Origin: a plasmid
DNA: 64,000 nucleotides
Sequence record: NZ_CP044080.1
Reading direction: 5' to 3' (one strand)
Below the pieces are notes generated by a model that saw nothing but the letters and a program-made list of their open reading frames with translations, was not told the origin of the DNA and did no database searches. Positions 42,803 through 61,752 of the stretch are shown here, piece by piece. The position numbers and the translations under genes were made by a program. The first letter of the stretch is position 1. Every line of letters starts with the position of its first letter.

Positions 42803-43835
42803 GATCGCGCCCCGCCCCGGCGGCAGCCGCGACTACAAGCGCGGCGCGATCATGGGCCTGACCGTGGCCGAGGCCTTCATCCTGCTGGCCTTCTGCCTGC
42901 TTCTGCTGTTCACCTGGTGGCAGGTGGAAACCGAGAAACGCTCGATCACCGTGGCCGAACGCATCGGCGAACTGACCGAGCAGCAAAAGCAGGATCTGGT
43001 CGCCGGCCTGTCCGACGGCACCTTCGACCTGGCCCGCACGCTGCGCGAGGCGGGCATCGTCGGCGGAGAACGGGCCTTGGCCGAAACCAGCCAATACAGC
43101 CGCTTCATGCGCGAGGAAGATCTGAAGCGCCTGATGCAGGCCACGGTGGAGCTGTCCCCCGACACCCGCCTGACCCTGGCCGACGCGGTCGAGGTCACGC
43201 CCGAAGCCGAGCTGCGCGATGCCTTGCGGAAACTGGCCGCGCGCGAGGACAGCGTCGAACAGGCCAGCCGCCGCCTGGCCGAGGCGGCCGCGACCCAGGA
43301 CCGCGCCGTCGCCATGCTGGACCGCGCCCTTGGCCAGGACATCCGCGCGGCCGGCGGGCAGATCGACGGGAACGGCACGATCACCCTGCCCCAGAACGTC
43401 CTGTTCGACCCCGGCAGCGACCGCATTCGCAACCTGCCCTTCCTGCGCGACTTCTGCACCGCCTGGATCGGCACGCTGCGCGATTCGGGACTGGACATCG
43501 CGAACCTCAAGATCGAGGGCCATGCCTCGAGCGAGGGGCGGCCGGGCGAGACGCCCGAGCAGGCCTATCTGTCGAACCTGGACCTGTCGCAGCGCCGTGC
43601 GCAGAACGCGCTGACGACCTGCCTGAACGGCATCCGCGACCCCCGGACGCTGGCCTGGGCGCGCGAACACCTGTCGGCGGCGGGCTATTCCTCGGCCCGG
43701 CCGGTGGTGCAGGCCGACGGCAGCGAGGACCGCGAAAAATCCCGCCGCGTGATGTTTGCCATGGACGTGGACCGCGAGGCGCTGATCGACGGCATCCGCG
43801 AGGACCTGACAAGCACCCCGCCCGCCTTGCCCTAA
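42795..43835 (+). CDS. MotB/OmpA-family peptidoglycan-binding protein (gene 4)
   Basis: N-terminal TM LTVAEAFILLAFCLLLLFTWW, a long linker, and a C-terminal OmpA-like domain (ITLPQNVLFDPGSDRIRN…LKIEGHASSEG…NLDLSQRRAQNALTTCL…AAGYSSARPV). 8-nt overlap with gene 3. Confidence 0.75.
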   Translation: MPRIAPRPGGSRDYKRGAIMGLTVAEAFILLAFCLLLLFTWWQVETEKRSITVAERIGELTEQQKQDLVAGLSDGTFDLARTLREAGIVGGERALAETSQYSRFMREEDLKRLMQATVELSPDTRLTLADAVEVTPEAELRDALRKLAAREDSVEQASRRLAEAAATQDRAVAMLDRALGQDIRAAGGQIDGNGTITLPQNVLFDPGSDRIRNLPFLRDFCTAWIGTLRDSGLDIANLKIEGHASSEGRPGETPEQAYLSNLDLSQRRAQNALTTCLNGIRDPRTLAWAREHLSAAGYSSARPVVQADGSEDREKSRRVMFAMDVDREALIDGIREDLTSTPPALP

Positions 43836-43887: not shown

Positions 43888-44745
43888 TTGCTCATGCAGC
43901 AGGTGTGGGCTTACACTTTGCCTGTCCTGCAATGCCGACCTGTGCAGGATCCGCGCAACTCGGGGGGAGCGTTGAGCGATTTCGTGCGTCAGGACAGGAT
44001 TGTGGCCCTGCTGGATGAGCGACCTTTCGCATCGGTGCGCGATCTGCAAAAGCTGATCGGCGTGTCGGGCGCCACCATCCGCCGCGACATCGAAAAGCTG
44101 AACGACGCCGGACGGGCCCGCAAGGTCTATGGCGGGGTCGCGGCGATCGAACGCGGCACGCGCACGGCCGCGCTGCCTTTCGTGGAAAACCGCGACATCG
44201 CAGTCGCCGCCAAGCGGGCCATCGCGCGCGAGGCCGAGCGGCTGGTCCAGGACGGCACCGCCATCATGATCCACGGCGGATCGACCTGCTTTCACTTCGG
44301 CTGTCGCATCGCACATCGCAACCTGCGCGTCTTCACGAACTCGATGCCGCTGGCCGCCTACCTGTCGGAATACGGCACCTGCCTTCTGACCGTGGGCGGG
44401 GGCGACCTGCATCGCGATCCAGGCATCCTTTATGATGTGTCGGACCACCTGTCGCGCTTCTATGCGGCGCAGTTCTTTGTCGGCGCGCTGGGGGTCAGCG
44501 ACCAGGGCATTCTGGAACAGCACCCGCTGCTGGTGCGCCTGGCCGACGAGATGAGCCGGACCGCCTCCGAGGTGATCCTGCTGGCCGACAGCCGCAAGTT
44601 CAGCGTCCGCCCCCCGACCGTCGCCCTGCCCTTTTCCCGCATCAGCCGCGTCGTCACCGACGACGGCCTCAGCGACGCCCATGCCCGGATGCTGGAGCGG
44701 GCGGGCGTCGAGGTCATCGTCGCCCAGATCGAGAGGGAACCATGA
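43888..44745 (+). CDS. DeoR-family transcriptional regulator (sugar operon)
   Basis: DeoR HTH ([28 protein letters not shown]) plus C-terminal sugar-binding domain. The real start is probably the TTG at 43972, preceded by GGGGGGAG. Confidence 0.8.
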
Positions 44746-46289
44746 GCCCGTCACCCATCCTTGAGATGCGCAACATCTCCAAGACCTTCGGGCCGGTGCG
44801 CGCGCTGCGCGACGTCAGCCTGACGGTCTATCGCGGCGAACTGCATGCCCTGATGGGCGAGAACGGCGCCGGCAAGTCGACGCTGATGAAGATCCTGTCG
44901 GGCGCCTATATCGCCGATCCCGGCGGCAGCATCACCATCGAGGGAAAGCCCCAGGCCGAGGCGCGCGGCGCCGTCGCCGTGATCTATCAGGAACTGTCGC
45001 TGGCCCCGAACCTGACCGTGGCCGAGAACATGTTCCTGGGGCGCGAGATCGCGACGCGCGGCGTCGTGGACCGCGCCGGCACCCGCGAATGCGCCCAGCC
45101 GATCCTGGACCGGCTGGGGGTCAGCTTCGACGCGCGCACCTTGGTGGGCACCCTGTCGCTGGGCGAACGCCAGATGGTGGAAATCGCCCGCGCCCTGACC
45201 ACCGACGCCCGGCTGATCGTGATGGACGAGCCTACGACCTCGCTGTCGGCGCGCGAAACCGAGCGCCTGTTCGAAGTCATCGCCCGGCTGAAGTCCGAAG
45301 GCATCGCGATCATCTACATCAGCCACCGCATGGAGGAGGTCTATGCCTTGGCCGACCGCTGCTCGGTCCTGCGCGACGGGGTCTATATCGGCACGTTGGA
45401 CCGCGACGAGCTTTCGGCGGCGCGGCTGGTGCAGATGATGGTCGGCCGCGACCTGGACAGTTTCTACAAAAAGGAACACATCGCCTCGCCCGACCATTCC
45501 GGCACGCCGCTGATGCGGGTGCGCGACATGGCGGACGGCAGGCTGGTCAAGCCCTGCTCGTTCGACCTGTACCGGGGCGAGGTGCTGGGCATCGCGGGGC
45601 TGGTCGGCTCGGGCCGGACAGAGCTGGCGCGGCTGATCTATGGCGCCGATCCGCGCGTCAGCGGCACGGTGGAGCTGGACGGCAAGCCCGTCGCCACCAC
45701 GGACCCGCGCACCAGCCTGGCAAGCGGCATCGCCTATCTGACCGAGGACCGCGCCAAGCTGGGCCTGTTCCTGGACATGTCCATATCCGACAACGTGAAC
45801 GTGGGCGTGATCCAGCGCGACGCGGGCACCGGGGGACTGCTGAACTTCGCCGCCGCCGCACGGCGGGCGGGCGATGCGATCAAGGCGCTGGCGGTCAAGG
45901 CGCCCTCGGCCAAGATGCCGGTCGGCGGCCTGTCGGGCGGCAACCAGCAGAAGGTGCTGATCGCGCGGCTTCTGGAAACCGGCCCCCGCGTCGTCATCCT
46001 GGACGAACCCACGCGCGGCGTGGACGTGGGCGCGAAATCCGAAATCTACAAGCTGATCGACGGACTGGCCCGGCGCGGCGTCGGCGTCATCGTCATATCC
46101 AGCGAACTGGCCGAGATCATCGGCACCTGCGACCGCGTGCTGGCCATGCGCGAGGGCCATATCGCGGGCGAGGTCGCATCATACCCCGGCCAGCCGATCA
46201 GCCAGGAAGCCATCATGGAACTGTCGACCGGCACCGCGGCCGGCGCGACGACTGGAACGGCGGCCGAACCCGCCACGGAAGGAGCGTGA
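44742..46289 (+). CDS. sugar ABC transporter ATP-binding protein (tandem NBDs, RbsA-like)
   Basis: Two Walker A sites (GENGAGKST; [10 protein letters not shown]) and two LSGGxQQ signatures; ATGA overlap with the DeoR gene. Confidence 0.9.
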
Positions 46290-46290
46290 A

Positions 46291-47265
46291 ATGACCGACC
46301 AGACCAGCCCCGCCGCCCGCCAGCGCCTGCGCACCATGATGAGCGTGGTGGGCATGTTGCCCGTGCTGATCCTGCTTGCCGTGATTTTCGAGGTCATGAG
46401 CGGCCGGTTCATGTCGGTCAACAACCTGTCGAACGTCATGCAGCAGGCCTCGATCAACATCGTCCTGGCCTCGGGGATGACCTTCGTGATCCTGACCGGG
46501 GGGATCGACCTGTCGGTGGGCTCGATCCTGGCCACCTCGGCGATGGTCGCGGTCATCGTCTCGCTGATCCCCGAGGTCGGCTGGCTGGGCGTCCCGGCGG
46601 CGATGGGGGTGGGACTGGCCTGCGGGCTTGCGAACGGCATCCTGATATCGGCGTTGAAGCTGCCGCCCTTCATCGTGACGCTGGGGTCGCTGACCGCCGT
46701 CCGGGGCATAGCCCGGCTTCTGGGCAACGACACCACCGTCTTCAACCCCGACCTGCCCTTCGACGTGATCGGCAACGGCAGCCTGTTCGGCATCCCCTGG
46801 CTTGCGATCATCGCCTTCGTGGTGGTGCTGGCCTCCTGGTTCGTCCTGAAACGCACCGTGCTTGGCACCTGGATCTATGCCACCGGCGGCAACCCCGAGG
46901 CGGCGCGCCTGACCGGCATCAAGGTGCCGGTGGTGCTGCTGTTCGTCTATGGCATCTCGGGCCTGTTCGCGGGCCTGGGCGGCGCGATGGCGGCGGCGCG
47001 GCTTTACGCGGCGAACGGGCTGCAACTGGGCCAGGCCTATGAACTGGACGCCATCGCCGCGGTGATCCTGGGCGGCACCAGTTTCGTCGGCGGCATCGGC
47101 TCGATCTGGGGAACGCTCGTGGGCGCGCTCATCATCGCGGTGCTGTCGAACGGGCTGATCCTGATCGGGGTCAGCGACATCTGGCAATATATCGTCAAGG
47201 GCCTCGTCATCATCGCGGCCGTGGCGCTGGACCGCTATCGCCAGAAGGGCGGCGCGCGGACCTGA
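46291..47265 (+). CDS. sugar ABC transporter permease (RbsC-like)
   Basis: 324 aa, ~10 TM helices, BPD_transp_2 family; SD AAGGAG. Confidence 0.9.
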   Translation: MTDQTSPAARQRLRTMMSVVGMLPVLILLAVIFEVMSGRFMSVNNLSNVMQQASINIVLASGMTFVILTGGIDLSVGSILATSAMVAVIVSLIPEVGWLGVPAAMGVGLACGLANGILISALKLPPFIVTLGSLTAVRGIARLLGNDTTVFNPDLPFDVIGNGSLFGIPWLAIIAFVVVLASWFVLKRTVLGTWIYATGGNPEAARLTGIKVPVVLLFVYGISGLFAGLGGAMAAARLYAANGLQLGQAYELDAIAAVILGGTSFVGGIGSIWGTLVGALIIAVLSNGLILIGVSDIWQYIVKGLVIIAAVALDRYRQKGGART

Positions 47266-47301
47266 ACCCTTTCACAACGCATATAACGGGAGGAAAACCA
47301 C

Positions 47302-48240
47302 ATGCGTTTCACGAAAACCCTGGCCTCGGCGCTTGCCCTGGCGGCGGTCTCGGCGGTGCCGGTCGCGGCCAAGGACCTCAACAGCGTCGGCATCTCGGTC
47401 GGGCTTCTGGGCAACCCCTTCTTCGTCGCCACCATCAAGGGGATCGAGGATGCGGCCAAGAAGATCAACCCGAACGTCAAGGTCACCTCGGTTTCGGCCG
47501 ACTACGACCTGAACAAGCAGGTCAGCCAGATCGACAGCTTCGTCGCGGCGGGCGTGGACATCATCATGCTGAACGCCGTCGACGCCCAGGCCATCGGCCC
47601 GGCCGTCAAGCGCGCGACCGACGCCGGCGTGATCGTCGCGGCCTTTGACGTGTCGGCCCCCGGCGCGACCGTCACCGTGATGACGAACAACGTCCAGGCC
47701 GGCGAAAAGGCCTGCGCCTATCTGGCCGAGAAGCTGGGCGGCAAGGGCGACATCGTCATCGTGAACGGCCCCTCGTCGTCCTCGATCCTGGACCGGGTCA
47801 AGGGCTGCAAGGACGAGCTGGCCAAGCACCCCGACATGAAGATCCTGTCCGACGACCAGAACGCTCAGGGCTCGCGCGATGGCGGGCTGAACGTGGGCCA
47901 GACCCTGCTGACCCGCTTCGACAAGATCGACGGGGTGTTCGCGATCAACGACCCGACCGCCATCGGCTTTTCGCTGGCGGCCAAGCAGGCCAACCGCAAC
48001 GAATTCATCATCACCGCGGTCGACGGCGCCCCCGACATCGAGAACGAGCTGAAATCCGGCGATGGGCTGATCAAGGCCTCGGCCTCGCAGGACCCCTACA
48101 CCATGGCGGGCCAGGCGCTGGAAATGGGCTATCAGGCGCTGCAGGGAACCGTGCCCGACCCCGACACCGTCCTGCTGGAGCCCGAGTTGATCACCCATGA
48201 CAACATCGGCGAATACAAGGGCTGGACCTCGCCCCGCTAA
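47302..48240 (+). CDS. sugar ABC transporter periplasmic binding protein (RbsB-like)
   Basis: Signal peptide followed by a periplasmic binding protein type I fold; SD GGGAGGAAAA. Confidence 0.9.
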   Translation: MRFTKTLASALALAAVSAVPVAAKDLNSVGISVGLLGNPFFVATIKGIEDAAKKINPNVKVTSVSADYDLNKQVSQIDSFVAAGVDIIMLNAVDAQAIGPAVKRATDAGVIVAAFDVSAPGATVTVMTNNVQAGEKACAYLAEKLGGKGDIVIVNGPSSSSILDRVKGCKDELAKHPDMKILSDDQNAQGSRDGGLNVGQTLLTRFDKIDGVFAINDPTAIGFSLAAKQANRNEFIITAVDGAPDIENELKSGDGLIKASASQDPYTMAGQALEMGYQALQGTVPDPDTVLLEPELITHDNIGEYKGWTSPR

Positions 48241-48297: not shown

Positions 48298-48993
48298 ATG
48301 ACCGACGACGAGCTGCGCCGCGCCGTCCTTGACGCCAATCTGGACACCGTGCACCACGGGCTAGTGATCTCGACCTTCGGCAACGCCAGCGGCATCGACC
48401 GCAATGCCGGCCGCATCCTGATCAAGCCCAGCGGCGTGGCCTATGACCGCCTGACCCCGGCCGACATGGTGCCCTGCGACCTGGATGGCCGCAGCCTGGA
48501 CAACCGGCTGCGCCCCTCCTCGGACCTGGCGACCCATGCGGTGCTGTATCGGGCTTTCGCGGACATCGGCGGCGTGGTCCATACCCATTCGACCTATGCG
48601 ACCATCATGGCCCAGTCCCACCGGCCGGTCCCCTGCCTGGGCACCACCCATGCCGATTACTTCCACGGCACGATCCCGGTGACGCGCGACCTGACGGCCG
48701 AGGAGATCGCCCAGGATTACGTCGGCAACACCGGCGCCGTCATCGTGGAAACCTTTGCTGACCTCGACCCGCTGGCGATCCCCGCTGTCCTGGTTGCGGG
48801 CCATGGCCCCTTCACCTGGGGCCGCACCCCGGCCGAGGCCGTCCACAACGCCCTGATCCTGGAGCAGGTCGCGAAAATGGCGTGGCATGCCATGGTCTTG
48901 AACCCGGATCCTCAACCGATTTCGCAGGCGCTTCTGGACCGCCACTTCCTGCGCAAGCACGGTGCGCAGGCCACTTACGGACAGGATGGCTAG
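48298..48993 (+). CDS. class II aldolase/epimerase family protein (L-ribulose-5-phosphate 4-epimerase-like)
   Basis: AraD/FucA family Zn-binding motifs (VVHTHSTYAT, HGPFTWG). Confidence 0.8.
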   Translation: MTDDELRRAVLDANLDTVHHGLVISTFGNASGIDRNAGRILIKPSGVAYDRLTPADMVPCDLDGRSLDNRLRPSSDLATHAVLYRAFADIGGVVHTHSTYATIMAQSHRPVPCLGTTHADYFHGTIPVTRDLTAEEIAQDYVGNTGAVIVETFADLDPLAIPAVLVAGHGPFTWGRTPAEAVHNALILEQVAKMAWHAMVLNPDPQPISQALLDRHFLRKHGAQATYGQDG

Positions 48994-48994
48994 G

Positions 48995-50572
48995 ATGATC
49001 GTCGCAGGCGTCGATTTCGGCACGCTCAGCGTGCGCGTCACCCTGATGGATTGCGATGACGGCGCGACGCTGGGCGGCGCGGTCGCGTCCTATCCGCTGA
49101 AACGCAGCGCCGCCGATCCGCTGCTGGGCGCGCAGTCCCACGACGACCAGATGGATGCCCTGGCCCGCGCCATGCGCGAGGCGGTGGCCAAGGCGGGCAT
49201 CCGGGGCGAGGCGGTGGCGGCGCTGGCCTGCGACACCACCGGATCAAGCGTCGTGATGGTCGACCGGGACCTGCGCCCGCTGGCCGACTATTACCTGTGG
49301 TGCGACCACCGCGCCCATCGCGAGGCCGAGGAGATCACCGCCCTTGGCCGCGCCGAGGGGCTCGAGGCGCTGAAATGGTGCGGCGGGACCTATTCGCACG
49401 AATGGGGCTATGCCAAGGTCCTGCATTTCCTGCGCCACAACCCGGACCTGCGGGACCGCTTCGCCACCGCGCTGGAACATTGCGACATGGTGGCGGCGAC
49501 GCTGTGCGGCATCCGCGATCCGGCCGATCTGGCGCGCAGCATCTGCGCGGCCGGGCACAAGTGGATGTATGGCGCCGCCTGGGGTGGGCTGCCGCCGCAG
49601 GATTTCCTGAGCCGCGTCGATCCGCTGCTTGACGGGATCAACGAACGGCTTGCCGGCCGCTTCCTGACCTCGGATGCCGTCGCGGGGCACCTGTCGCCGG
49701 AATGGGCCGAACGACTGGGCCTCGCGCCCGGCATTCCGGTGCCCGTGGGCGCCTTTGACGCGCATTGGGACGCGGTGGGCGCGGGCGCGCGGCCCGGCGA
49801 CATCGTGAACGTGGTCGGCACCTCGACCTGCATCATCGCCATGGGGCCACAGGGCTTTCCGCCCGTGCCCGGCCTTTGCGGCGTGGTGCCAGGCAGCGTC
49901 CTGCCCGGCTGGACCGGGATCGAGGCCGGCCAGTCCGCCACCGGCGACGTCTTCGACGCCATCGCCCGGCGCGCCGGCCGCGACGTGGCGGCGCTATGTG
50001 CCGAGGTCGCCCACCTGCCCCCCGGCGGCAGCGGGCTGATGCGGTTGAACTGGGACAATGGCGACCGCACGGTGCTGGTGCGCCCGGACCTGGGCGCGGT
50101 CACGCTGGGCTGGGACCTGAACCACACCGCCGCGGACGAGATGCACGCCGCGATCGAGGGCATGGCCATGCATGTCCGCATCATCACCGAGCGCATCGAG
50201 CAGGGCGGGATGGAAACCGCCCGTATCGTCAACGCCGGCGGCATCCCGCAGCGCAACGACCTGCTGAACCAGGTCTATGCCGATGTGCTGGGGCGCGAAG
50301 TGCATGTCCCCGCCCAGTCCCCCGTGGGCACCGGCTCGTGCATCTTTGCCGCGATGGCGGCGGGGGCCTTCGACACGTTCCAGGTGGCGCAGCAGGTCCT
50401 GTGCCCGCCCACCCGGGTGTTTTTCCCGCGTGGCGGCTATGACGCTCTGAACGCCCTGTTCCGCGACCTTTACTTCGGCTTGGGCGAAGGGCGGCCGCTG
50501 GACCTGGCGGGGGTTCTGCCGCAGCTGCGGGCCTTTCGCCTGCAAGGCGCCGGGGCGCGCGGCCATGACTAG
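48995..50572 (+). CDS. FGGY-family carbohydrate kinase (ribulokinase-like)
   Basis: FGGY N- and C-terminal domains (GVDFGTLSVRV…; GGIPQRNDLLNQVYADVLG); start ATG at 48995 after SD AGGATGG. Confidence 0.8.
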   Translation: MIVAGVDFGTLSVRVTLMDCDDGATLGGAVASYPLKRSAADPLLGAQSHDDQMDALARAMREAVAKAGIRGEAVAALACDTTGSSVVMVDRDLRPLADYYLWCDHRAHREAEEITALGRAEGLEALKWCGGTYSHEWGYAKVLHFLRHNPDLRDRFATALEHCDMVAATLCGIRDPADLARSICAAGHKWMYGAAWGGLPPQDFLSRVDPLLDGINERLAGRFLTSDAVAGHLSPEWAERLGLAPGIPVPVGAFDAHWDAVGAGARPGDIVNVVGTSTCIIAMGPQGFPPVPGLCGVVPGSVLPGWTGIEAGQSATGDVFDAIARRAGRDVAALCAEVAHLPPGGSGLMRLNWDNGDRTVLVRPDLGAVTLGWDLNHTAADEMHAAIEGMAMHVRIITERIEQGGMETARIVNAGGIPQRNDLLNQVYADVLGREVHVPAQSPVGTGSCIFAAMAAGAFDTFQVAQQVLCPPTRVFFPRGGYDALNALFRDLYFGLGEGRPLDLAGVLPQLRAFRLQGAGARGHD

Positions 50573-50588: not shown

Positions 50589-51377
50589 CTACTTGACCGC
50601 CAGCCCGGCGGTCAGCCCACCGTCGATGCCATAGTCGGCGCCGGTGATGAAGCCCGCGCGGTCCGAGCACAGGAAGGCCACCAGTTCGGCCACCTCCTCG
50701 GGCTCGCCAATCCGCCCCAGGGGATGGGCCGCGCCGAAGCGGGCAAAGACCTCGTCCTGCGGCAGTTCGGCGCCCAGCTTGCGCGCCGCCAACTCCAGGA
50801 TCGGCGTGCGGACCGACCCGGGCGAGACCGAGTTTACCCGCACCCCGGCCGCCGCATGGTCCAGCGCCATCGCGCGGGTCAGCGCATGGATCGCCCCCTT
50901 GCTTGCGACATAGGCCGCGACGCCCTGCTGGCAGGCGTGACCCTGGGCCGAGGACAGGTTGACGATGGCGCCGCCGCCCCGCCGCGCCATTTCCGGGATG
51001 CCGAAGCGGCCGGTCAGCACGATGCCACCCACGTTGACCGCCATGCAGCGCGTGAAATCGTCCCAGTCCGTGTCCAGCACCGTGCCGTAAGGGTGGACCG
51101 CCGCCGCGTTCACGATGATGTCGAGCCCGCCGAACAGGTCGACCGCCTCGGCCACCGCGGCCTCGACCGAGGTGTCGTCGGCCACGTCCAGCGCCAGCGC
51201 CGTGATCGACAGGCCCTGCGCGACCGCCATGGCCGCAAGCTCCTGGTTGGCGGCGATGTCGATGCCGCCGGCCAGCACTTCGGCCCCGCCCTGCGCCAGC
51301 CGGATCGCGCTGGCCCGCCCGATCCCCGTGGTCCCCGTCACCAGCGCGACCTTGCCCGCAAATTCACGCTCTGCCAT
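50589..51377 (-). CDS. SDR-family oxidoreductase
   Basis: TGTTGIGRA cofactor motif, catalytic YxxxK (YVASKGAIHALTR). Confidence 0.85.
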   Translation of the reverse strand: MAEREFAGKVALVTGTTGIGRASAIRLAQGGAEVLAGGIDIAANQELAAMAVAQGLSITALALDVADDTSVEAAVAEAVDLFGGLDIIVNAAAVHPYGTVLDTDWDDFTRCMAVNVGGIVLTGRFGIPEMARRGGGAIVNLSSAQGHACQQGVAAYVASKGAIHALTRAMALDHAAAGVRVNSVSPGSVRTPILELAARKLGAELPQDEVFARFGAAHPLGRIGEPEEVAELVAFLCSDRAGFITGADYGIDGGLTAGLAVK

Positions 51378-51472
51378 CCGCCCGTCTCCCTGTCCTGCCC
51401 GGCAATCCTATCGGTTTCGCGCGGGAATTGAAGGGGGCGGCCAATACCCTCCAAAGCCATGGAAAGCACTTC

Positions 51473-52259
51473 ATGAAACGCTCGGAAGTCAATGATATCC
51501 TTCGCCAAGGCCAGGCCTTCATCCAGTCCTTCGGCTGGCATCTGCCGCCCTTTGCCGACTGGACGCCCGACCAGTTCCGCGCGCGCGCCGATCAGGCGCA
51601 AGCCATCCTGTCGGCCGGTCTGGGCTGGGACCTGACCGATTTCGGACAGGGCGACTATGCGCGCACCGGGCTTTTCCTGTTCACGGCGCGCAATGGATCC
51701 GCGGCCGACCTGCAGGCCGGGCGCGGCATGTGCTATGCCGAAAAGATTCGGACAGGGCGACTATGCGCGCACCGGGCTTTTCCTGTTCACGGCGCGCAAT
51801 GGATCCGCGGCCGACCTGCAGGCCGGGCGCGGCATGTGCTATGCCGAAAAGATCATGTGGGTGCGCGATGGCCAGGTGACCCCCATGCACCGCCACATCG
51901 TCAAGGCCGAGGACATCATCAACCGCGGCGGCGGCGATCTGGTGCTGAAGGTCCACGGCGCGCAAGCCGACGGCACGGTCTGCCGCGACCGGCCCGTGAC
52001 GGTGGCCTGCGACGGCCTGCCCCGGCAGATCGGGCCCGACCAGCACCTGCGGCTGAAGCCCGGCGAAAGCGTCACCCTGCTGCCCGGCGTCTGGCACAGC
52101 TTCTGGGCCGAGGCGGGCGACGCGCTGGTGGGCGAGGTCTCGACCGTGAACGACGATATGACCGACAATGTCTTCGAGGCCCCTGTCGGCCGCTTCGCCC
52201 GCATCGACGAGGACGAAGCGCCCTGGCGGCTGCTGGTGTCGGACTATGGGGGATTCTGA
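51473..52259 (+). pseudogene. D-lyxose/D-mannose-family sugar isomerase (cupin) disrupted by a 106-bp tandem duplication (frameshift)
   Basis: The N-terminal part (MKRSEVNDILRQGQAFIQSFGWHLPPFADW…GMCYAEKI) is in one frame. After the second repeat copy the conserved remainder (MWVRDGQVTPMHRH…WHSFWAE…) continues in the +1 frame. Removing one 106-bp copy restores a single ~226-aa ORF. Confidence 0.6.
51642..51853. repeat. perfect direct tandem duplication, 2 x 106 bp (51642-51747 and 51748-51853)
   Basis: Identical 106-nt units TCGGACAGGGCGACTATGCGCGCACCGGGC…TGCTATGCCGAAAAGAT read directly from the sequence. Confidence 0.85.
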
Positions 52260-52328
52260 CGGGTTCCGCCTTGCGCGACTGGCGGTCTTGTTGGATAACG
52301 CCCGCAAGCAAGAACAGAGGTTCCCGCC

Positions 52329-52640
52329 ATGCGAGTCCGTATCTACAAGCCTGCGCGCAACGCGATGCAATCCGGCATCGCCCGCACCAAGCTTTGGGTG
52401 CTTGAATTTCCGGCAGACGATTCGCGCGAGATCGACCCGCTGATGGGCTGGACCAGCAGCGACGACACACAAAGCCAGGTCCGCCTGCGGTTCGAGACGC
52501 GCAAGCAGGCCGAGGACTATGCCCGCGAGAAGGGCCTGGAGTTCGAGGTAATCGAGCCCCACTCTCGCGCCCCGAACGTCCGTCCCCGCGGCTACGGCGA
52601 AAACTTCGCCCCCGACCGCCGCGCGCCCTGGACGCACTAA
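52329..52640 (+). CDS. ETC complex I subunit conserved-region protein (NDUFS4/18-kDa homologue)
   Basis: Matches the alphaproteobacterial NDUFS4-like family ([13 protein letters not shown]…[37 protein letters not shown]). Confidence 0.8.
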
Positions 52641-53131
52641 CAGGCGCAGGCAGGCTGGGCCAAGCGGCCCGGCCGGGATCGGGCGCAGGCTGTTGCGCCG
52701 TTGAGCTCCCCTCGGGGGTGGGCATCCCGCCCCTGTCCGACGTTGCAGGCCCGGTTTGATGGCATGGCATGGCCTGCGAAGGCCGGCACCGATACCCGTG
52801 CCTTCACGCCGATGAAGACTTCTCGCCTGTCATTCCGATGCCGAACTGATCCGCTGCCGGACATGGGACCGCCCTGGCTGGGGCGATGCCCAGTCGCGCC
52901 CAGCGTCGTCGCCTAATACGCCAATCACGCGCCGAACATGGGCTCGAGACCTGCAAAATTCGCGCAGCCCTCGCCAATACACCCAGCAAATCCAAGATAA
53001 GTATCTGTTCTTTATAGAAATAAATCAGGGCTGTCCCGACGCCAAAGATGTAGACAGATAATCCTATCTATCCGTATAGTTTTGACAGTTGCCTCTCCAA
53101 AACCAATGCAACGTCAACAACAGGGATTTCC

Positions 53132-54343
53132 ATGATCAACCGTCGTCGCTTCCTGACCACCTCGACGCTCGCCGCGGCATCGCTGGCCGCGCCGGGCCTC
53201 GTGACCCGCGCCCTGGCCGCTGGCGAGGCGCTGAAGATCGGCGTGCCGGTGCCGATCTCGGGTGCCTTTGCGGCCAATGGCAAATTCGCCACGATCGGCG
53301 CTGCCCTGGCCGCGGAAGAGGTCGCAGCCGCGCATGGCGTGCAGGTCTCGACCCTGGACCTGGATACCGAGGGCAAGCCCGCCACCGCCGTGCGCAAGGT
53401 GCAGGATGCCTTGGCACAGGACGGGATCAAGCTGTTCGCGGGCGGCATCCTCTCGTCGGAATCGCTGGCCATGGGCAAGGAGATCGGGCGCGGCGGCGGC
53501 GCCTTCATGACCACCGCCGGCGCGGACGAGATCACCGGCGTCGATTGCAACAAGGCCACCTTCCGCTGGTCGGTGCCGACCTTCGGCGCCATCAACCAGA
53601 CCGTGCGGCCGATCATCGACGCGCTGCCCGACGCCAAGAAATGGTATACGATCACGCCGCAATATGTCTTTGGCGACGGGCTCTTGAACGCCGCCAAGGC
53701 GGTCTTTGCCGAAAAGGGCATCGACCATGTCGGCAACAGCTATCATTCGCTGACCGACAAGGAATTCTCGGGCTATCTGACCAATGCCATCGCGGCGCAG
53801 CCCGATGTGCTGCTGCTGCTGAACTTCGGCGCCCAAAGCTCGGACACGCTGCGGCAGGCGGTCAGCTTCGGCCTGAAGCAGCGCATGACCATCGTGGTCG
53901 CCTGGGCCTCGGGGCTCGAGCAGTTCGAGGCGCTGGGGCCGGACATCTGCGAGGGCGTCTATTTCGGGGCGCAATACTGGCACGGGGCGGATTCGCCGCT
54001 GAACCGCGAACTGGTCGCCAAGGTCCAGGAAAAGCACGGCTTCAACCCGAACTATTCCTTTGCCGGCAGCTACATCATCAGCAAGCTGCTGCTTGAAGGC
54101 GCGGTCAAGGCCGGCTCGCCCGAGGGACCGGGGGTCGCCAAGGCGCTGCAAGGGCTGAAATACGCGGGCCTGACCGGCGAAGAGGAAATCCGTGCCGCCG
54201 ACCACCAGGTCATCAAGGATTACTACCTGCTGAAGGGCAAGGCCAAGGCCGACATGGCCGACAAGGACGATTACGCCGAAATCGTCAGCTCGGGCAAATC
54301 GTTCCTGTCGCCCGAGGAAGCCGGCTGCAAGATGCCCGCCTGA
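53132..54343 (+). CDS. ABC transporter substrate-binding protein, LivK/amide-urea (type I PBP) family, Tat signal
   Basis: Twin-arginine signal NRRRFLTTSTLAAASLAA; PBP type I fold. Confidence 0.85.
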   Translation: MINRRRFLTTSTLAAASLAAPGLVTRALAAGEALKIGVPVPISGAFAANGKFATIGAALAAEEVAAAHGVQVSTLDLDTEGKPATAVRKVQDALAQDGIKLFAGGILSSESLAMGKEIGRGGGAFMTTAGADEITGVDCNKATFRWSVPTFGAINQTVRPIIDALPDAKKWYTITPQYVFGDGLLNAAKAVFAEKGIDHVGNSYHSLTDKEFSGYLTNAIAAQPDVLLLLNFGAQSSDTLRQAVSFGLKQRMTIVVAWASGLEQFEALGPDICEGVYFGAQYWHGADSPLNRELVAKVQEKHGFNPNYSFAGSYIISKLLLEGAVKAGSPEGPGVAKALQGLKYAGLTGEEEIRAADHQVIKDYYLLKGKAKADMADKDDYAEIVSSGKSFLSPEEAGCKMPA

Positions 54344-54411
54344 TCCCCGCCCCGCGCGCGCCCCGCGCGGCCCATGCCGTGCGGGGACCTTCCGGTTTCA
54401 GGGAGAGTCCC

Positions 54412-55266
54412 GTGATCTACCTTTTCCAGGTTCTGAACGGCATCGGTCTGGGGATGCTGTATTTTCTGCTGGCCGTCGGGCTTAGCATCATCTTTGGCCT
54501 GCTGCAGTTCGTGAACTTTGCCCATGGCGCGTTCTATCTGCTGGGCGCCTATCTGACCTATGACCTGACCACGCGCGGCTTCAGCTTCTGGCTGGCAATG
54601 CCGCTGGCCACGCTGATCGTCGCCGCCATCGCCGCGCTGATCGAGGCGCTGCTGCTGCATCGCATCTACAAGCTGCCGCATACCTTCCACATCCTGGTCA
54701 CCGTGGGCCTTGCCTTGGCGATCCAGGAGCTGGTGATCATCGCCTGGGGACCGCTGGGCGGTTCGGTGCCCGCGCCCGAAGGGCTGCAGGGCGTGGTGAT
54801 CCTGGGCGATTTCATCTATCCGCAATACCGCCTATTCACCATCGGCTTCACCGCCGTCCTGGCCGGGCTGCTTTGGTGGCTGCTGGAGGGGACGCGGCTG
54901 GGCGCCATCGTGCGCGGCGGCTCGGAATCGGCGTCGAACATGGCGCTGCTGGGCTACAACACCATGCGCATCAACACCGTCGTCTTCGGCTTCGGCGCCG
55001 GTCTTGCAGGCCTTGCCGGGGCGCTTGCGGCGCCGATCCGGGGGGTCGAGCCCTTCATGGGGGCCGAGGCGCTGTCGATCGCCTTCGTCGTCGTCGTGAT
55101 CGGCGGCATGGGCAGCTATACCGGCGCGCTGGTCGCCGGACTGCTGGTCGGCGTCGTGCAAAGCCTGATGGCCACGATCTGGCCCGAGGGCGCGCGCCTG
55201 ATGATCTATGTCGGCATGGCCATGGTCATCGCGCTGATGCCGCGCGGCCTTTTGGGGAGGGCATGA
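54412..55266 (+). CDS. branched-chain amino acid-type ABC permease (LivH family)
   Basis: LivH-like TM protein; GTG start with SD AGGGAGAG 5 nt upstream. Confidence 0.8.
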   Translation: MIYLFQVLNGIGLGMLYFLLAVGLSIIFGLLQFVNFAHGAFYLLGAYLTYDLTTRGFSFWLAMPLATLIVAAIAALIEALLLHRIYKLPHTFHILVTVGLALAIQELVIIAWGPLGGSVPAPEGLQGVVILGDFIYPQYRLFTIGFTAVLAGLLWWLLEGTRLGAIVRGGSESASNMALLGYNTMRINTVVFGFGAGLAGLAGALAAPIRGVEPFMGAEALSIAFVVVVIGGMGSYTGALVAGLLVGVVQSLMATIWPEGARLMIYVGMAMVIALMPRGLLGRA

Positions 55267-56231
55267 GCATGAACCCGCTGGACAAACCCGTCGCGCAGAT
55301 GGCGCTGGCCCTTGCCACCGCGCTGATCCTGCCGCTGTTCCTGAAATCGGGCATCCTCGCGACCGAGATCCTGATCTTTGCCATGGTGGTCGCGGCCTGC
55401 AACCTGCTTCTGGGCTATACCGGCCTTCTGTCCTTCGGTCAGGGCATCTTCTTCGGCATCGGCACCTATGTCGCGGGGATCTGCCTGACGCGCTGGCAGG
55501 TGCCGGTTCCGGTCGTGCTGGCGGGCGCTGCCCTGCTGGGCGCGCTGACGGCGACCCTGGTCGGCTGGCTGTCGATCCGGCGGCAGGGGGTCTATTTCGT
55601 CATGCTGACGCTGGCCTTCTCGCAGCTTTTCTACTTCCTCGCCTATACGTTCTCGGGCCTGACCGGGGGCGACAACGGGCTGCTTGGCGTGCCACGCCCC
55701 AGCATCGGCGGGGCCGAGCTGAACGCGCCTTGGTCCTACTACACCTATGTCGCGATCTGCTTCCTGGCGGTCTTTGCGCTGCTCATCATGGTCACGCAAT
55801 CGACCTTCGGCCGCACGCTGCTGGCGATCCGCGAGAACGAGGGCCGCGCCGCCGCCATCGGCTTTCCGACCCGCATCTTCAAGATCGAGGCCTTCGCCAT
55901 CTCGGGCGCGGTCACCGCCCTTGGCGGGGCGCTGCATGCCATGCTGATCGGCGTCGCGCCGCTGTCGAACATCGAATACCACACCAGCGAGCTGATCCTG
56001 ATCATGACCATCATCGGCGGCAGCTCCAGCCTGTTCGGCTCGGTGCTGGGGGCGGGGTTCTACCTGCTGCTGGCCGATGCGCTGTCGGCGATCTGGCCGC
56101 GCTGGCTGCTGTTGCTGGGGCTGGTTCTGGTCGCGGTGGCACTGTTCCTGCAACGCGGCCTTTGGGGCCTGGTCGAGCGCGGCTATGACCTTGTGGCGCG
56201 CCGCGGCAAGACCCCGGCGAAGGAGCATTGA
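55263..56231 (+). CDS. branched-chain amino acid-type ABC permease (LivM family)
   Basis: ATGA-coupled to the preceding permease; start MSMNPLDKP. Confidence 0.8.
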   Translation: MSMNPLDKPVAQMALALATALILPLFLKSGILATEILIFAMVVAACNLLLGYTGLLSFGQGIFFGIGTYVAGICLTRWQVPVPVVLAGAALLGALTATLVGWLSIRRQGVYFVMLTLAFSQLFYFLAYTFSGLTGGDNGLLGVPRPSIGGAELNAPWSYYTYVAICFLAVFALLIMVTQSTFGRTLLAIRENEGRAAAIGFPTRIFKIEAFAISGAVTALGGALHAMLIGVAPLSNIEYHTSELILIMTIIGGSSSLFGSVLGAGFYLLLADALSAIWPRWLLLLGLVLVAVALFLQRGLWGLVERGYDLVARRGKTPAKEH

Positions 56232-56232
56232 G

Positions 56233-57000
56233 ATGACCGACATCGTATTGCAGACCAAAGGGCTGGGCGTCAAATACGGCAACTTCCATGCCCTGGCCGA
56301 GGTGGACCTGCAGATCCGCCGCAACTCGGTCCATTCGGTGATCGGGCCGAACGGCGCCGGCAAGACCACGCTGTTTCACGCGCTGACCGGGCGGGCGCAG
56401 GCGTCCTCGGGCCGGATCGAGCTGGACGGGCGCGACATCACTGGCACCTCGGACGACGACCGGGTGCGGTTGGGGATCGCGCGGTCCTTTCAGGTGACAA
56501 GCCTGTTCCCGAACCTCGCGCTGCGCGAGAACCTGCGGCTGGCCGCGCAGGGCCGCACGCCCTGGCAGGCGCTGGCGCCTTGGCGGCGGGCGGAATCGAA
56601 CGCCCAGGCGCTGGCCATCGCCGACGAGGTGATCCAGCGGCTCGAGCTGTCCCGCGTGGCCGACCGGCTGGCGGGCGAGCTGTCGCATGGCCAGCAGCGC
56701 CGGCTGGAAGTCGGCATGGCGATGGCCGCCCGCCCCCGGGTGATCCTGCTGGACGAGCCGACCTCGGGCATGGGCATCGACGATATCGAGGCGATGAAGC
56801 AGCTGATCCGCGACCTTGGCCGCGACCACACGGTGCTGTTCATCGAACACAACATGGGCATCGTCATGAACATCTCGGACATGGTCACGGTGATGCGGCT
56901 GGGCCGCAAGCTGGTCGAGGGGCCGCCCGCGCAGGTCCGCGACGACCCCGAGGTGCGGCGCGCCTATCTGGGCAACATGATCACGGGGGACATCGCATGA
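56233..57000 (+). CDS. ABC transporter ATP-binding protein (LivG family)
   Basis: Walker A GPNGAGKTT, signature LSHGQQRRLE. Confidence 0.85.
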   Translation: MTDIVLQTKGLGVKYGNFHALAEVDLQIRRNSVHSVIGPNGAGKTTLFHALTGRAQASSGRIELDGRDITGTSDDDRVRLGIARSFQVTSLFPNLALRENLRLAAQGRTPWQALAPWRRAESNAQALAIADEVIQRLELSRVADRLAGELSHGQQRRLEVGMAMAARPRVILLDEPTSGMGIDDIEAMKQLIRDLGRDHTVLFIEHNMGIVMNISDMVTVMRLGRKLVEGPPAQVRDDPEVRRAYLGNMITGDIA

Positions 57001-57701
57001 CCGCCGCGCTGCAACTGACGGATCTGCACGCCTATTACGGCAAAAGCCACATCCTGCAAGGCGTCAGCCTGACCGTGGGCGCGGGCGAGATCGTGACCCT
57101 GCTGGGCCGCAACGGTGCCGGCAAAAGCACCACGCTGAAGACCGCCGTGGGCCTGATCGCACCGCCCCAGGGCCGGGTCGAACTATGCGGGCGCGACGTG
57201 ACCGGGCAACCGGCCTATCGCATCGCCTCGGCCGGGCTGTCGCTGGTGCCCGAGGATCGCGGCATCTTCCAGCTGCTGACGGTCGAGGAGAACCTGCGCA
57301 TCGCCCAGCGGCGCGGCTCGCCTTGGGGGCTGTCCGACATCTATCGCATCTTTCCGCGCCTGCAAGAGCGGCGCAGGAACGGCGGCGGTCAGCTTTCCGG
57401 GGGCGAACAGCAGATGCTGTCGATCGCGCGCGCGCTGCTGAATGGGCCCAAGGTGCTGATGCTGGACGAGCCGGTCGAGGGGCTGGCCCCGATCATCGTC
57501 GAGGAGATCGTGGCCCAGGTCCGGCTGATCCGCGACGAAGGCGTGCCGATCCTGCTGGTCGAGCAGAACCTGGCCGTGTGCAGCCAACTGGCCGACCGGC
57601 ATTACATCCTGGAGCTTGGCCGCATCGTGCACGAGGCCAGCGCCCAGGAATTCCGCAACGCCCCCGAGGTCATCGACCGCTATCTGGGCGTCAAGGCTTA
57701 A
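56997..57701 (+). CDS. ABC transporter ATP-binding protein (LivF family)
   Basis: Walker A GRNGAGKST, signature LSGGEQQMLS; ATGA overlap with the preceding gene. Confidence 0.85.
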   Translation: MTAALQLTDLHAYYGKSHILQGVSLTVGAGEIVTLLGRNGAGKSTTLKTAVGLIAPPQGRVELCGRDVTGQPAYRIASAGLSLVPEDRGIFQLLTVEENLRIAQRRGSPWGLSDIYRIFPRLQERRRNGGGQLSGGEQQMLSIARALLNGPKVLMLDEPVEGLAPIIVEEIVAQVRLIRDEGVPILLVEQNLAVCSQLADRHYILELGRIVHEASAQEFRNAPEVIDRYLGVKA

Positions 57702-57710
57702 GGAACCCCA

Positions 57711-58970
57711 ATGTCAAACCTGAACATCGACGCCGAGCGGCTGTGGGACAGCCTGATGCAAACGGCGGAAATCGGCGGCACGCCGGATGGCGGCATCGCG
57801 CGGCTGACGTTGTCGGATGACGACCGGCGGGTGCGCGACTGGCTGGCGCAGCAATGCGCCGCGCTGGGGATGACGTTGCAGGTGGACGAGGTCGGCAACA
57901 TGTTCGCGACCCGCCCCGGGCGGCGCGCCGACCTGCCCGCCATCGCGATGGGCAGCCACCTGGACACCCAGCCCACCGGCGGCAAGTTCGACGGCGTGCT
58001 GGGGGTGCTGGGCGGGCTCGAGGTGCTGTGCACGCTGGACGCCGCCGGCTACCAGACCGAGGCGCCCCTGATGCTGGTCAACTGGACGAATGAGGAAGGC
58101 TCGCGCTTTTCGCCCGCGATGCTGGGCTCGGGCGTCTGGGCGGGGGTTTACAGCCGCGACCATGCCGACGCCCGGCTGGACGCGACGGGCGACAGCTTTG
58201 GCGCCAGCCTGGACCGCATCGGCTGGCGCGGGCCGCTGAAGGCCGGCGCGATCCGCTTTGGCGCGATGTTCGAATTGCACATCGAGCAAGGCCCGATCCT
58301 TGAGGACGAGGGCGCCCAGATCGGCGTCGTGCAGGGCATCCAGGGCATGCGCTGGTTCGACCTCGTACTGACCGGAACGGCGGCACATACCGGCTCGACC
58401 CCGATGGGGATGCGGCGCAATGCGCTGCTGGGCATGGCGCAGGTGATCGCGGGCATCGACCGCATCGCCAAGGCGCATGACGGCGCCGTGGGCACTATCG
58501 GCTATCTCGACATCAGCCCCAATTCGCACAACGTGATCCCTGGCGAGGTGCGGGCGACCATCGACCTGCGCCACCCCTCGGACGCGGTGCTGGACGTGAT
58601 AGAGGCCGAGGTCGCGGCGCTGGCGGCCGAGACAGCCGCAGGCGCAGGGCTGGACCAGCGCCTGGTGCCGATCTCGCGCACGGCGGCGGTGGCCTTCGAT
58701 GCGGATTGCATCGCCTCGGTCCGGGCGGGGGCGCAGGCGGCGGGCTTTTCGACACGCGACATCATTTCGGGCGCGGGCCACGACGCAGCCCATGCGGCGG
58801 CGGTCGCGCCAACGACGATGATCTTTGTCCCCTGTGCCGGCGGGCTGTCCCACAACCCGGCGGAATCGACGGAACCGGCCGAATGCGCCGCCGGCGCGCA
58901 GGTCCTGCTGGAGGCCGTGCTGGACTATGACCGCCGCATGGCCGAGGCCCGGTCGGAGGCAACCGCATGA
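57711..58970 (+). CDS. M20-family Zn-dependent amidohydrolase (allantoate amidohydrolase / N-carbamoyl-L-amino-acid hydrolase type)
   Basis: M20 metal-ligand motifs (AMGSHLDTQPTGGKFDG; NWTNEEGSRF) and AmaB/AllC-like length. Confidence 0.8.
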   Translation: MSNLNIDAERLWDSLMQTAEIGGTPDGGIARLTLSDDDRRVRDWLAQQCAALGMTLQVDEVGNMFATRPGRRADLPAIAMGSHLDTQPTGGKFDGVLGVLGGLEVLCTLDAAGYQTEAPLMLVNWTNEEGSRFSPAMLGSGVWAGVYSRDHADARLDATGDSFGASLDRIGWRGPLKAGAIRFGAMFELHIEQGPILEDEGAQIGVVQGIQGMRWFDLVLTGTAAHTGSTPMGMRRNALLGMAQVIAGIDRIAKAHDGAVGTIGYLDISPNSHNVIPGEVRATIDLRHPSDAVLDVIEAEVAALAAETAAGAGLDQRLVPISRTAAVAFDADCIASVRAGAQAAGFSTRDIISGAGHDAAHAAAVAPTTMIFVPCAGGLSHNPAESTEPAECAAGAQVLLEAVLDYDRRMAEARSEATA

Positions 58971-60451
58971 CCCGCCTGGTGCTGGCGCGGCTGAACCACG
59001 AAACGAACAGCTTTTCCCCAGTGCCGACCCCGCTGGCCGCCTTTGCCCCGAAATGGGGCGAGGACGCACTGGCAGCGGCGGATGGCTATTCCGCCGCCGT
59101 GGGCGCCTTTCACGCATTCGCCCGCCACATCGGCGCGCAGGTCGAGGTGCCGCTGATCGCCCATGCCATGCCCTCGGGTCCGGTCGAGGATGACGCGTTC
59201 GAGGCGATGGCGGCCGCCATCCTCGTGGCGGTCGAAAAGGGCTGCGACGGCATCCTGCTGGACCTGCACGGCGCGATGGTCACCCGCAGCCATGACGATG
59301 GCGAGGGCGAGCTTCTGCGCCGCATCCGCGCCGCCGCGCCCGGCGTCCCCATCGGCGTGGCTCTGGACCTGCACGGCAATATCACCCAGGCGATGCTGGA
59401 CCATTGCGACGTGATCGTGGGCTTCAAGACCTATCCGCATGTGGACATGGTCGAGACGGGCGATCATGTCGTGCGCCTGTTCCAGCCCTTGCTCGCCGGC
59501 GCACCGCGCCCGGCGATGGCGCTTTGCCATCCGCCGATGCTGGCGGCGACGCTGTGCATGAACACGACGACCGATTGCGCCATGACCGACCTGATCGCGC
59601 AGGCCCGCGCGGCCGAGGCGCGGCCGGGCGTGCAGGCGGTGACGGTGTTCGGCGGCTTCCCGATCTCAGACCTGGCGGAAACCGGGCTTTCCATCGTCGC
59701 CGTCGCCGATACTCCGGCGCTGGCTGCCGAGGTTGCGGCGGAACTAGGACGCGAGGCGTGGCGGCGGCGCGCGGATTATGTCTATCACGAAGAACCCCTG
59801 CCCCAGTCCATCGCCCGCGCCTCTGGCCTTGCGGGCGGCGGCAGGCCGGTGCTGCTGCTGGATCACGGCGACAATTGCATGTCGGGCGGATCCTGCGACG
59901 TGATGGACGTTCTTGAAGAGCTGCTGCAGGCGGGCGAGACCGGCGTCATGGTCGGCCCGATCGCCGACCCCGAGACGGTAGCGCAGCTGTTCGCGGCGGG
60001 CCAAGGCGCCAAGGTCGAAATCGCGCTTGGCAACAAGACCCCGGCCAAGGGCCTGCCCGCGCCGCACCCGCCCCTGAGCCTGACCGGGCGCGTCACGGCG
60101 CTGTCGGACGGGCGCTATCGCGTCGCCGGGCCGATCTATCACGGACAGCGGCTGTCGATGGGCCGGACCGCCGCCTTTGACACCGGCGCCGCGCGCATCG
60201 TCATCTGCGAGGAACCGCATGAGCCGCTTGACCTAGGCTGCTTTGCCTGCGTCGGGCTGGATGCCCGGCAGGCGCGATTCCTGCACCTGAAATCGCGCAT
60301 GTATTGCCGCCCGGTGTTCGAGCCCCTGGCGGCGGCGGTGTTGGAATGTGCAAGCTCGGGGGTGACCGCCTCGGATTACGGGTTGTTCGCTTTCCAAAAG
60401 CTGGCCCGCCCCATATATCCGCTGGACCCTGGAACCGGCTGGAAAGGCTGA
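58967..60451 (+). CDS. M81-family metallopeptidase (microcystinase MlrC-like, DUF1485/DUF1486)
   Basis: N-terminal LNHETNSFSP motif and overall MlrC-like architecture. Confidence 0.75.
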   Translation: MTRLVLARLNHETNSFSPVPTPLAAFAPKWGEDALAAADGYSAAVGAFHAFARHIGAQVEVPLIAHAMPSGPVEDDAFEAMAAAILVAVEKGCDGILLDLHGAMVTRSHDDGEGELLRRIRAAAPGVPIGVALDLHGNITQAMLDHCDVIVGFKTYPHVDMVETGDHVVRLFQPLLAGAPRPAMALCHPPMLAATLCMNTTTDCAMTDLIAQARAAEARPGVQAVTVFGGFPISDLAETGLSIVAVADTPALAAEVAAELGREAWRRRADYVYHEEPLPQSIARASGLAGGGRPVLLLDHGDNCMSGGSCDVMDVLEELLQAGETGVMVGPIADPETVAQLFAAGQGAKVEIALGNKTPAKGLPAPHPPLSLTGRVTALSDGRYRVAGPIYHGQRLSMGRTAAFDTGAARIVICEEPHEPLDLGCFACVGLDARQARFLHLKSRMYCRPVFEPLAAAVLECASSGVTASDYGLFAFQKLARPIYPLDPGTGWKG

Positions 60452-60460
60452 CTCACGCGA

Positions 60461-61231: not shown

Positions 61232-61752
61232 CGGTCGCCGGGCGGTGGGGCAGCCTGGGTCATCCCCGCCACAGGTCCACCGAGGCGGGCACAGCCGCCA
61301 TGACTTCGGCCAGCACCGAGACGGCCAGCTGCCGCGGATTGCGGGTCGAACGGATCATGCCGATGGGGCCGCGCAGCCGGCTGCTCAGTCTTGTCGCCAC
61401 AGGTTCCGCTCTACGCCGTTTCGCGGTAGGGCGATCCGTCGCCCACCCTGCATCGCTTCATCGCCATCATCCGCGAAGAGGTCGGCGAGAGCGCGCCGAT
61501 GGCCCTGGCGAACTGAGGTCATGTTTTGTCCTTTGGCCGATGGCTGATTGATGTCATGCGCGTTAATGCGCAGCAGCCTAAGCTGGCCCCGCAAACCCGC
61601 CGAAATGTCGCCATCCGTGATCTTGGCACTTTCTCGGTTGCCGCGAGTTACAACCTCAGGTTCAGATCGTCAGGGTCGCGAACCATGTGAGATGAACGAT
61701 TGCACGACAGGTTGCTTGCGACTTTCATGAGCTTCCGCGGGAGGCGGATCCA

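Follow-up and report, generated by a model that had tools for sequence, protein, structure and literature searches.

The window analysed here comprises 64,000 nucleotides (nt) of sequence record NZ_CP044080.1, a 267,632-bp plasmid of Paracoccus yeei. The gene in question encodes a cupin isomerase of the D-lyxose/D-mannose family, lies on the forward strand at 51473..52259, and is disrupted by a perfect 106-nt tandem duplication (681 nt and 226 amino acids (aa) when the extra 106 nt are subtracted). We consider it highly probable that this duplication is real, very recent, and private to one strain, that it arose by an illegitimate event and produced a frameshift null allele, and that the locus represents a one-off, reversible knock-out and not an evolved switch.

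Tandem duplication and split reading frame

Tandem Repeats Finder places a single array at 51641..51853, with a period of 106, 2.0 copies, 100% matches, 0 indels, and a score of 426. In a base-by-base comparison, a run of 107 nt at 51641..51747 is identical to that at 51747..51853, and the bases bordering this run disagree on both sides, with T (51640) versus A (51746) at the 5' side and T (51748) versus C (51854) at the 3' side. The array is made up of two perfect head-to-tail units of 106 nt plus one ambiguous T. Copy 1 (51641..51746, forward strand) covers codons 57-92 and starts in phase 0, and copy 2 (51747..51852, forward strand) equals copy 1 and is not in any other P. yeei sequence examined. 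The two copies meet at a novel junction, 51746/51747 (GAAAAGA/TTCGGAC), and the single T at 51853..51853 (forward strand), common to the unit start and the base after the unit, is the sole microhomology at the breakpoints. The phasing given by an earlier sequence-only reading of this DNA, 51642-51747 and 51748-51853, is equivalent to the one used here. Because the runner-up tandem repeat in the whole window is imperfect and scores only 86, the 106-nt repeat is unique in the 64 kb and not a product of chance; what lies in the isomerase gene is a perfect direct duplication of otherwise unique coding sequence.

As 106 is not a multiple of three, the reading frame shifts after codon 92. Translation from the ATG at 51473 yields native residues 1-92 in the start-codon frame (51473..51748, forward strand; 100% by tblastn, Pfam positions 1-93 of 222), followed by an out-of-frame tail of 218 residues rich in Arg, Pro, Gly, and Ala (51749..52405, forward strand) that does not meet a stop codon until 77 nt into the next gene. 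Native residues 57-226 are found in a different frame, within a 200-aa open reading frame (ORF) at 51657..52259 (forward strand) that begins with a 30-residue out-of-frame leader and matches Pfam positions 57-222 of 222 only. Deletion of one unit in silico restores an intact ORF of exactly 226 aa from the ATG at 51473. In the window itself, the match to the PF07385 domain is split over two frames instead of filling one uninterrupted ORF, and the gene is therefore classed as a pseudogene of the PF07385 family. The frameshifted products of 325 aa and 310 aa have no entry in the protein collection searched. The sequence-only reading had described an ORF at 51428..52405, two identical 106-nt tandem units, displacement of the conserved C-terminal part from the frame of the start codon, and a predicted intact ORF of about 226 aa, and on all these structural points it holds up.

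Public annotation presents the locus differently. The GenBank protein QEU07087.1 (200 aa) corresponds exactly to 51657..52259 and is named a D-lyxose/D-mannose family sugar isomerase with the frameshift unflagged, and RefSeq carries a 188-aa version with a start at 51693 (WP_397294203.1), in which the frameshifted pseudogene is likewise unflagged.

The repaired ORF covers the whole PF07385 (Lyx_isomer) model (positions 1-222 of 222) and scores 324.6 bits against a cutoff of 20.8, and its top NCBIfam match is the D-lyxose/D-mannose isomerase model NF051472, in line with the family named by the sequence-only reading. With 256.5 bits, the NF051472 match does not reach the equivalog cutoff of 350, so that the family is certain and the preferred sugar (D-lyxose, D-mannose, or L-ribose) is not established. 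The repaired protein aligns over residues 1-224 with the solved D-lyxose isomerase of Escherichia coli O157 (3KMH/3MPB; E = 2.8e-60). The cupin His-His-Glu-His metal site is common to the repaired protein and this O157:H7 enzyme (Z5688), from which the window gene differs in being split by a frameshift and in falling below the NF051472 cutoff. Residues H104, H106, K109, E111, and H173 are invariant in 41 homologues, giving the His-His-Glu-His set plus Lys, and correspond to H75, H77, K86, E88, and H143 of the Thermofilum enzyme TsLI, in which H75, H77, E88, and H143 are Mn ligands and K86 is the catalytic lysine (PMC8378251).

An AlphaFold model built with the 41 homologues (mean predicted local distance difference test score of 92.7) places four helices at residues 3-48 and a first strand at 51-55, followed by the cupin barrel. 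The duplication spans residues 57-92 of this modelled protein, and residues 1-92 would account for the four helices, strands beta-1 and beta-2, and part of beta-3. All four metal ligands and K109 are downstream of residue 92 and hence past the frameshift. From the native start, translation would proceed through residues 1-92 into 218 nonsense residues, and the catalytic part would not be translated from that start. Judged from its sequence, the allele is most likely null or severely crippled, that is, a fresh pseudogene.

Read-level support and single-copy relatives

The sequence-only reading had also raised the possibility of an assembly artefact, in which one true copy exists and the second 106-nt unit was made by a long-read assembler or polisher. 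The perfect identity of the copies and the presence of the duplication in one deposited assembly only would be in keeping with such an error, as would the lack of an exact match to the 43-nt junction in Joint Genome Institute metagenome contigs, a search that is uninformative for a private allele. Evidence from outside that assembly comes from Logan, which holds independent de Bruijn assemblies of single sequencing runs, built from 31-mers seen at least 2 times, with each 31-mer occurring once in the output (PMC12424806). Because each 31-mer is unique in the output, no Logan contig can hold the whole tandem duplication. If the reads contain the junction, the upstream contig is expected to stop at 51670, after the unit's first 30-mer, and the downstream contig to begin at 51824 with the final 30-mer of the repeated run; these are the (k-1)-mer boundaries at which the paths from upstream sequence to unit, from unit to unit, and from unit to downstream sequence merge and split.

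Precisely these ends were found. Contigs L089 (SRR8991243, 11,298 nt) and L090 (SRR8991244, 6,914 nt) are 100.000% identical to the window and both start at 51824, and contig L108 (SRR8991244, 6,099 nt; the same contig in two samples) is 100% identical to the window and ends at 51670, which places the junction in sequenced DNA beyond one assembly. Such ends in two runs need junction k-mers that were seen at least 2 times and survived graph cleaning. Both boundary 30-mers are confined to the two unit copies within the window, and the Logan contigs of six other runs (ERR1009409, ERR14790979, SRR31513758, SRR31923987, ERR5083242, and SRR23704197) pass unbroken across the site. The local assembly is also free of error-type (homopolymer-type) indels and frameshifts in coding sequence when compared with strain TT13 over about 15 kb. 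An artefact of the assembler or polisher is very unlikely and largely excluded, since the contigs of both read sets, assembled with k=31, end precisely at the repeat boundaries, and we give this explanation next to no weight. It follows from this case that small tandem duplications can be validated from the end coordinates of public Logan k=31 contigs even where the reads themselves are not at hand.

The single-copy state was assessed in a P. yeei set of four complete plasmids and about 20 isolate or metagenome contigs. Plasmid pYEE46822P13 of strain CCUG 46822 has a single unit, with a DNA identity of 98.3% over 8.3 kb, and the repaired protein, which occurs in identical form in other samples, is 100% identical to the one encoded there, as it is to protein P0001. 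The plasmids of TT13, FDAARGOS_252, and CCUG 32053, the only three other P. yeei plasmids matched in PLSDB, also have a single unit (matches of 845-846 bp for a 951-bp query), as do contigs L087, L088, L091-L093, L097-L100, and L102-L107, and at least 10 distinct 226-aa alleles on about 100 contigs are without the duplication. The nearest relative, Logan contig L088 (ERR1009409), differs by 2 single-nucleotide polymorphisms (SNPs) in 17,432 nt, both of them in araD, and it has one copy and an intact gene. Because a sequence only 2 SNPs away has one copy, the duplication is private and very young. A very recent event was among the options offered by the sequence-only reading, and it is the one upheld by the occurrence of the duplication in one strain only and by its absence from the nearest relative (2 SNPs in 17.4 kb); the single copy and ORF of about 226 aa that this reading expected of orthologues were found in all other P. 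yeei sequences examined, so that the wild-type allele is present in close relatives.

Across 24 P. yeei sequences, the ratio of nonsynonymous to synonymous diversity (piN/piS) of the isomerase gene is 0.11, with neighbouring genes ranging from 0.007 to 0.22. This value indicates that the gene is under normal purifying selection in the species and that its null alleles are recent. A long-decaying pseudogene across P. yeei is ruled out by the same value.

Another null allele was encountered during this comparison. In six P. yeei loci (L081-L085 and L101, from isolates and metagenomes, with at least 5 haplotypes), codon 14 of a single-copy gene is changed from CAG to TAG, giving a stop at Gln14 (window 51512-51514). 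This allele appears in NCBI either as a 210-aa protein from an ATC start (WP_314187349.1) or as a 141-aa protein. We rejected the idea that the 141-aa gene calls reflect contigs broken at the repeat, as they are single-copy genes with the Gln14 amber codon. Public records are thus misannotated for both alleles, with the frameshifted pseudogene entered as an isomerase of 200 or 188 aa and the Gln14-stop allele as proteins of 210 or 141 aa. Rare missense changes at family-invariant positions were also observed, namely G83W (L104) and D193N (L087, L099, and L092), together with Y62S (L092); the carriers of D193N are close relatives of the window strain, and these changes may mark further, partly damaged alleles.

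P. yeei genomes contain on average about 190 pseudogenes, 36-49% of them on extrachromosomal replicons (PMC11578231). The null alleles are compatible with occasional dispensability of the isomerase, and selection for loss is not demonstrated by them. We think it unlikely that loss of the isomerase is repeatedly favoured in human-associated or wastewater P. yeei, with the duplication as a reversible OFF state of an unprogrammed metabolic switch. If this were true, a lineage could shut down and later regain D-lyxose/L-ribose/D-mannose isomerisation on a chromid-like replicon.

The pentose/pentitol cluster and its surroundings

The isomerase gene forms the end of a cluster headed by an intact gene for a DeoR/GlpR-family regulator (43972..44745, forward strand). 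It is followed on the same strand by an intact Rbs-type sugar ATP-binding cassette (ABC) transporter at 44742..48240 (ATPase 44742-46289, permease 46291-47265, and binding protein 47302-48240), by an intact gene for the L-ribulose-5-phosphate 4-epimerase AraD (48298..48993), whose nearly strain-specific allele served as a lineage marker, and by an intact gene for a ribulokinase of the FGGY family (48995..50572; 486.5 bits to NF003154 with a cutoff of 428, in agreement with the TT13 annotation). An intact gene for a short-chain dehydrogenase/reductase (SDR) family oxidoreductase (50589..51377, reverse strand) is the divergent neighbour of the isomerase gene. The intergenic region between the two (51378..51472) presumably contains their promoters; none was detected there by a sigma-70 scan, and the scan for sigma-70 promoters and terminators returned nothing above chance. 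Directly downstream of the isomerase gene is a gene for an NDUFS4-like protein annotated as an electron transport chain ('ETC') complex I subunit (52329..52640, forward strand), the first 77 nt of which are overlapped by the frameshifted frame.

The sequence-only reading assigned the isomerase to this adjacent pentose/pentitol cluster. Within Paracoccus the assignment stands, with synteny conserved across three species (P. yeei, P. limosus, and P. laeviglucosivorans), the last of which has the isomerase gene directly after the ribulokinase gene; it does not extend to the other 77 related loci, from which the linkage is absent. Characterised D-lyxose isomerases also convert L-ribose to L-ribulose and back (PMC8378251). 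It is reasonable to infer that an aldopentose enters the kinase/epimerase route through the isomerase and a pentitol through the SDR enzyme, in which case only the aldose branch would be lost in the window strain. Seven P. yeei strains, CCUG 46822 included, all metabolise D-lyxose in API 50 CH (PMC11578231), and among those seven an intact isomerase gene is confirmed for CCUG 46822 only. Searches of the comparative study of P. yeei turned up no mention of the lyxose gene. The strain with the duplication is accordingly predicted to be D-lyxose-negative or slow, and revertants would be expected to lack exactly 106 bp.

Several other features of the window were recorded. A segment of about 8.9 kb at 52698-61611, encoding a Liv-type ABC transporter (five genes), an M20 peptidase, a DUF1485/MlrC-like protein, and a GntR regulator, is variable among P. 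yeei strains and absent from TT13 and CCUG 46822. Strains without it have a remnant of about 0.4 kb that matches the end of the M20 gene at 79% identity, and the variation is probably a deletion polymorphism. A conserved cluster of four genes at 39531-43835, annotated only as hypothetical or OmpA, encodes two unknown proteins of 470 and 277 aa, a short ZorA-like MotA/ExbB protein of 341 aa (a weak 25-bit match), and a ZorB-like MotB/OmpA protein of 346 aa (86 bits to PADLOC ZorB2); the cluster does not correspond to a canonical Zorya system. At its 3' end (46235-46290), the gene for the ABC-transporter ATPase is rich in indels between strains, with alleles of 515 and 509 aa. Imperfect tandem repeats of 27 nt (2.1-2.6 copies, 78-86% matches) are present at 62392-62472, inside a gene at 61753-62964 for a CAP-domain/haemolysin-type calcium-binding protein. 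Finally, the ends of contigs L088, L089, and L108, from near-identical strains and different runs, nearly coincide at 45572-45584 and 63121, which suggests that the sequences at these points are repeated elsewhere in the genome.

Proposed origin, expected reversibility, and known systems

Because the breakpoints share 1 nt only, the origin of the duplication appears to be illegitimate and not driven by a repeat tract, and the wild-type sequence has no direct repeats bordering the unit. The most likely initial step would be an essentially homology-free replication template switch or misjoining of sister strands. Slippage mediated by GAT was considered and rejected. It would make the unit 107 nt long and place GATTTCGG in copy 2, but the window reads GATTCGG there and the repeat period is 106. 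A mobile-element origin was also rejected; the adjacent strain-variable segment of 8.9 kb consists of transporters and hydrolases, and no integrase or transposase was detected in it. The unit contains a GC-rich quasi-palindrome of 28 nt (51699..51726, forward strand; an inverted repeat), 21 nt before the right breakpoint, and the DNA of 51690-51750 folds with -16.5 kcal/mol (z = -2.1). It is possible, in a speculative vein, that a hairpin of this quasi-palindrome stalled the polymerase when the duplication arose.

Once formed, the perfect 106-bp repeats would lend themselves well to RecA-independent slippage or template switching as well as to unequal sister exchange, and precise loss of one unit would restore the wild type at a readily selectable frequency. 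In an E. coli plasmid, tetA with tandem repeats of 101 bp undergoes precise RecA-independent deletion, and in uup radD cells about 8% carry the deletion, which is 96-fold over wild type (PMC7145654). By analogy, the 106-bp allele should revert easily, and the forward step would be rare and the backward step frequent.

High-frequency deletion of perfect tandem repeats of about 100 bp also speaks for the phase-variable switch that the sequence-only reading had entertained, in which gain and loss of the 106-nt unit would form a contingency ON/OFF switch of pentose catabolism. Alternation by duplication and reversion has an analogue in pneumococcal cap3A (Waite et al. 2001, as summarised in PMC11163986), and the independent Gln14-stop null circulating in P. 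yeei may mean that loss of the gene is sometimes favoured. The forward step, however, cannot be frequent or site-specific with a breakpoint homology of 1 nt and no prior repeat. The segment is unique in 24 other P. yeei alleles, without a hypermutable tract or site-specific element across strains, and the duplication occurs in 0 of these 24 sequences and in 0 of the approximately 100 contigs with 226-aa alleles. Nor do both states recur by the same mechanism, as the duplication is known from one strain and the other null is a point nonsense mutation, and the piN/piS of 0.11, like that of the neighbours, points to ordinary purifying selection. The switch is therefore unsupported as a programmed device, with no repeat tract or flanking homology in other alleles, and we regard it as highly improbable.

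Several points weigh against our own reading of a real, recent, and reversible null allele. The de Bruijn graph would be alike for a pure population and for a mixture of single-copy and duplicated molecules, and Logan contig ends show the junction and not the copy number (two versus more). SRR8991243 and SRR8991244 are probably the read sets behind the deposit, which makes the support assembler-independent and not independent of the DNA preparation, and the duplication could be of laboratory-passage origin. The source strain is probably FDAARGOS_643, a designation based on the accession series only (NZ_CP044078-82 in PMC11578231). The reversion rate is extrapolated from multicopy plasmids of E. 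coli. Lastly, the 200-aa ORF at 51657..52259 retains 170 native residues, the Pfam match at 57-222, and all catalytic residues, and has a weak AGGG motif resembling a Shine-Dalgarno sequence 5 nt upstream of its ATG.

These properties of the 200-aa ORF, together with its annotation as a protein by NCBI, could mean that it is still an active isomerase, either alone or with the N-terminal fragment that overlaps it over residues 57-92. It is, however, without the four N-terminal helices and strand beta-1, and without eleven family-invariant residues (M1, R3, S4, N7, P25, P26, G51, W52, D53, T55, and D56). In the alignment with the solved E. coli enzyme, the missing region is matched from residue 1 onwards, and even short archaeal enzymes have N-terminal helices ahead of the barrel (PMC8378251). 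Moreover, the ORF has no promoter of its own or strong ribosome-binding site, and its product would begin with the 30-residue nonsense leader. On these sequence grounds the 200-aa ORF is most likely inactive, and residual activity of this kind strikes us as hardly credible.

The tetA assay on pSTL57 (PMC7145654) is similar in that a perfect tandem repeat of about 100 bp constitutes a null allele that a RecA-independent precise deletion restores. It differs in being artificial, located in E. coli, and multicopy, so that its rates may not hold for a low-copy Paracoccus replicon of 268 kb. In the cryptic phnE of E. coli K-12, an extra 8-bp unit reportedly shifts the frame, and its precise loss under selection is said to reactivate the gene. 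As with phnE, a catabolic or transport gene is silenced here by a frame-shifting extra tandem copy. The phnE tract of 8 bp is said to be pre-existing and to change frequently in both directions, whereas the 106-nt unit was previously unique and only the reverse step would be frequent. In cap3A of the pneumococcal type 3 capsule, spontaneous intragenic duplications switch the gene OFF and their loss restores the ON state (Waite et al. 2001, via PMC11163986), and the likeness lies in a head-to-tail duplication of part of an ORF that switches a gene off. The difference is that the cap3A OFF variants recur and are regarded as phase variation, their phenotype being under selection, whereas in P. 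yeei there is one duplication, in one strain, in a catabolic gene, with no switching or reversion observed. The isomerase locus is therefore a new instance of a well-known type of mutation in a known enzyme family and no new kind of system. Set beside these systems, it offers a clean natural case in which a short tandem duplication formed without homology can be seen before it has reverted or diverged, with a near-isogenic single-copy relative at hand.

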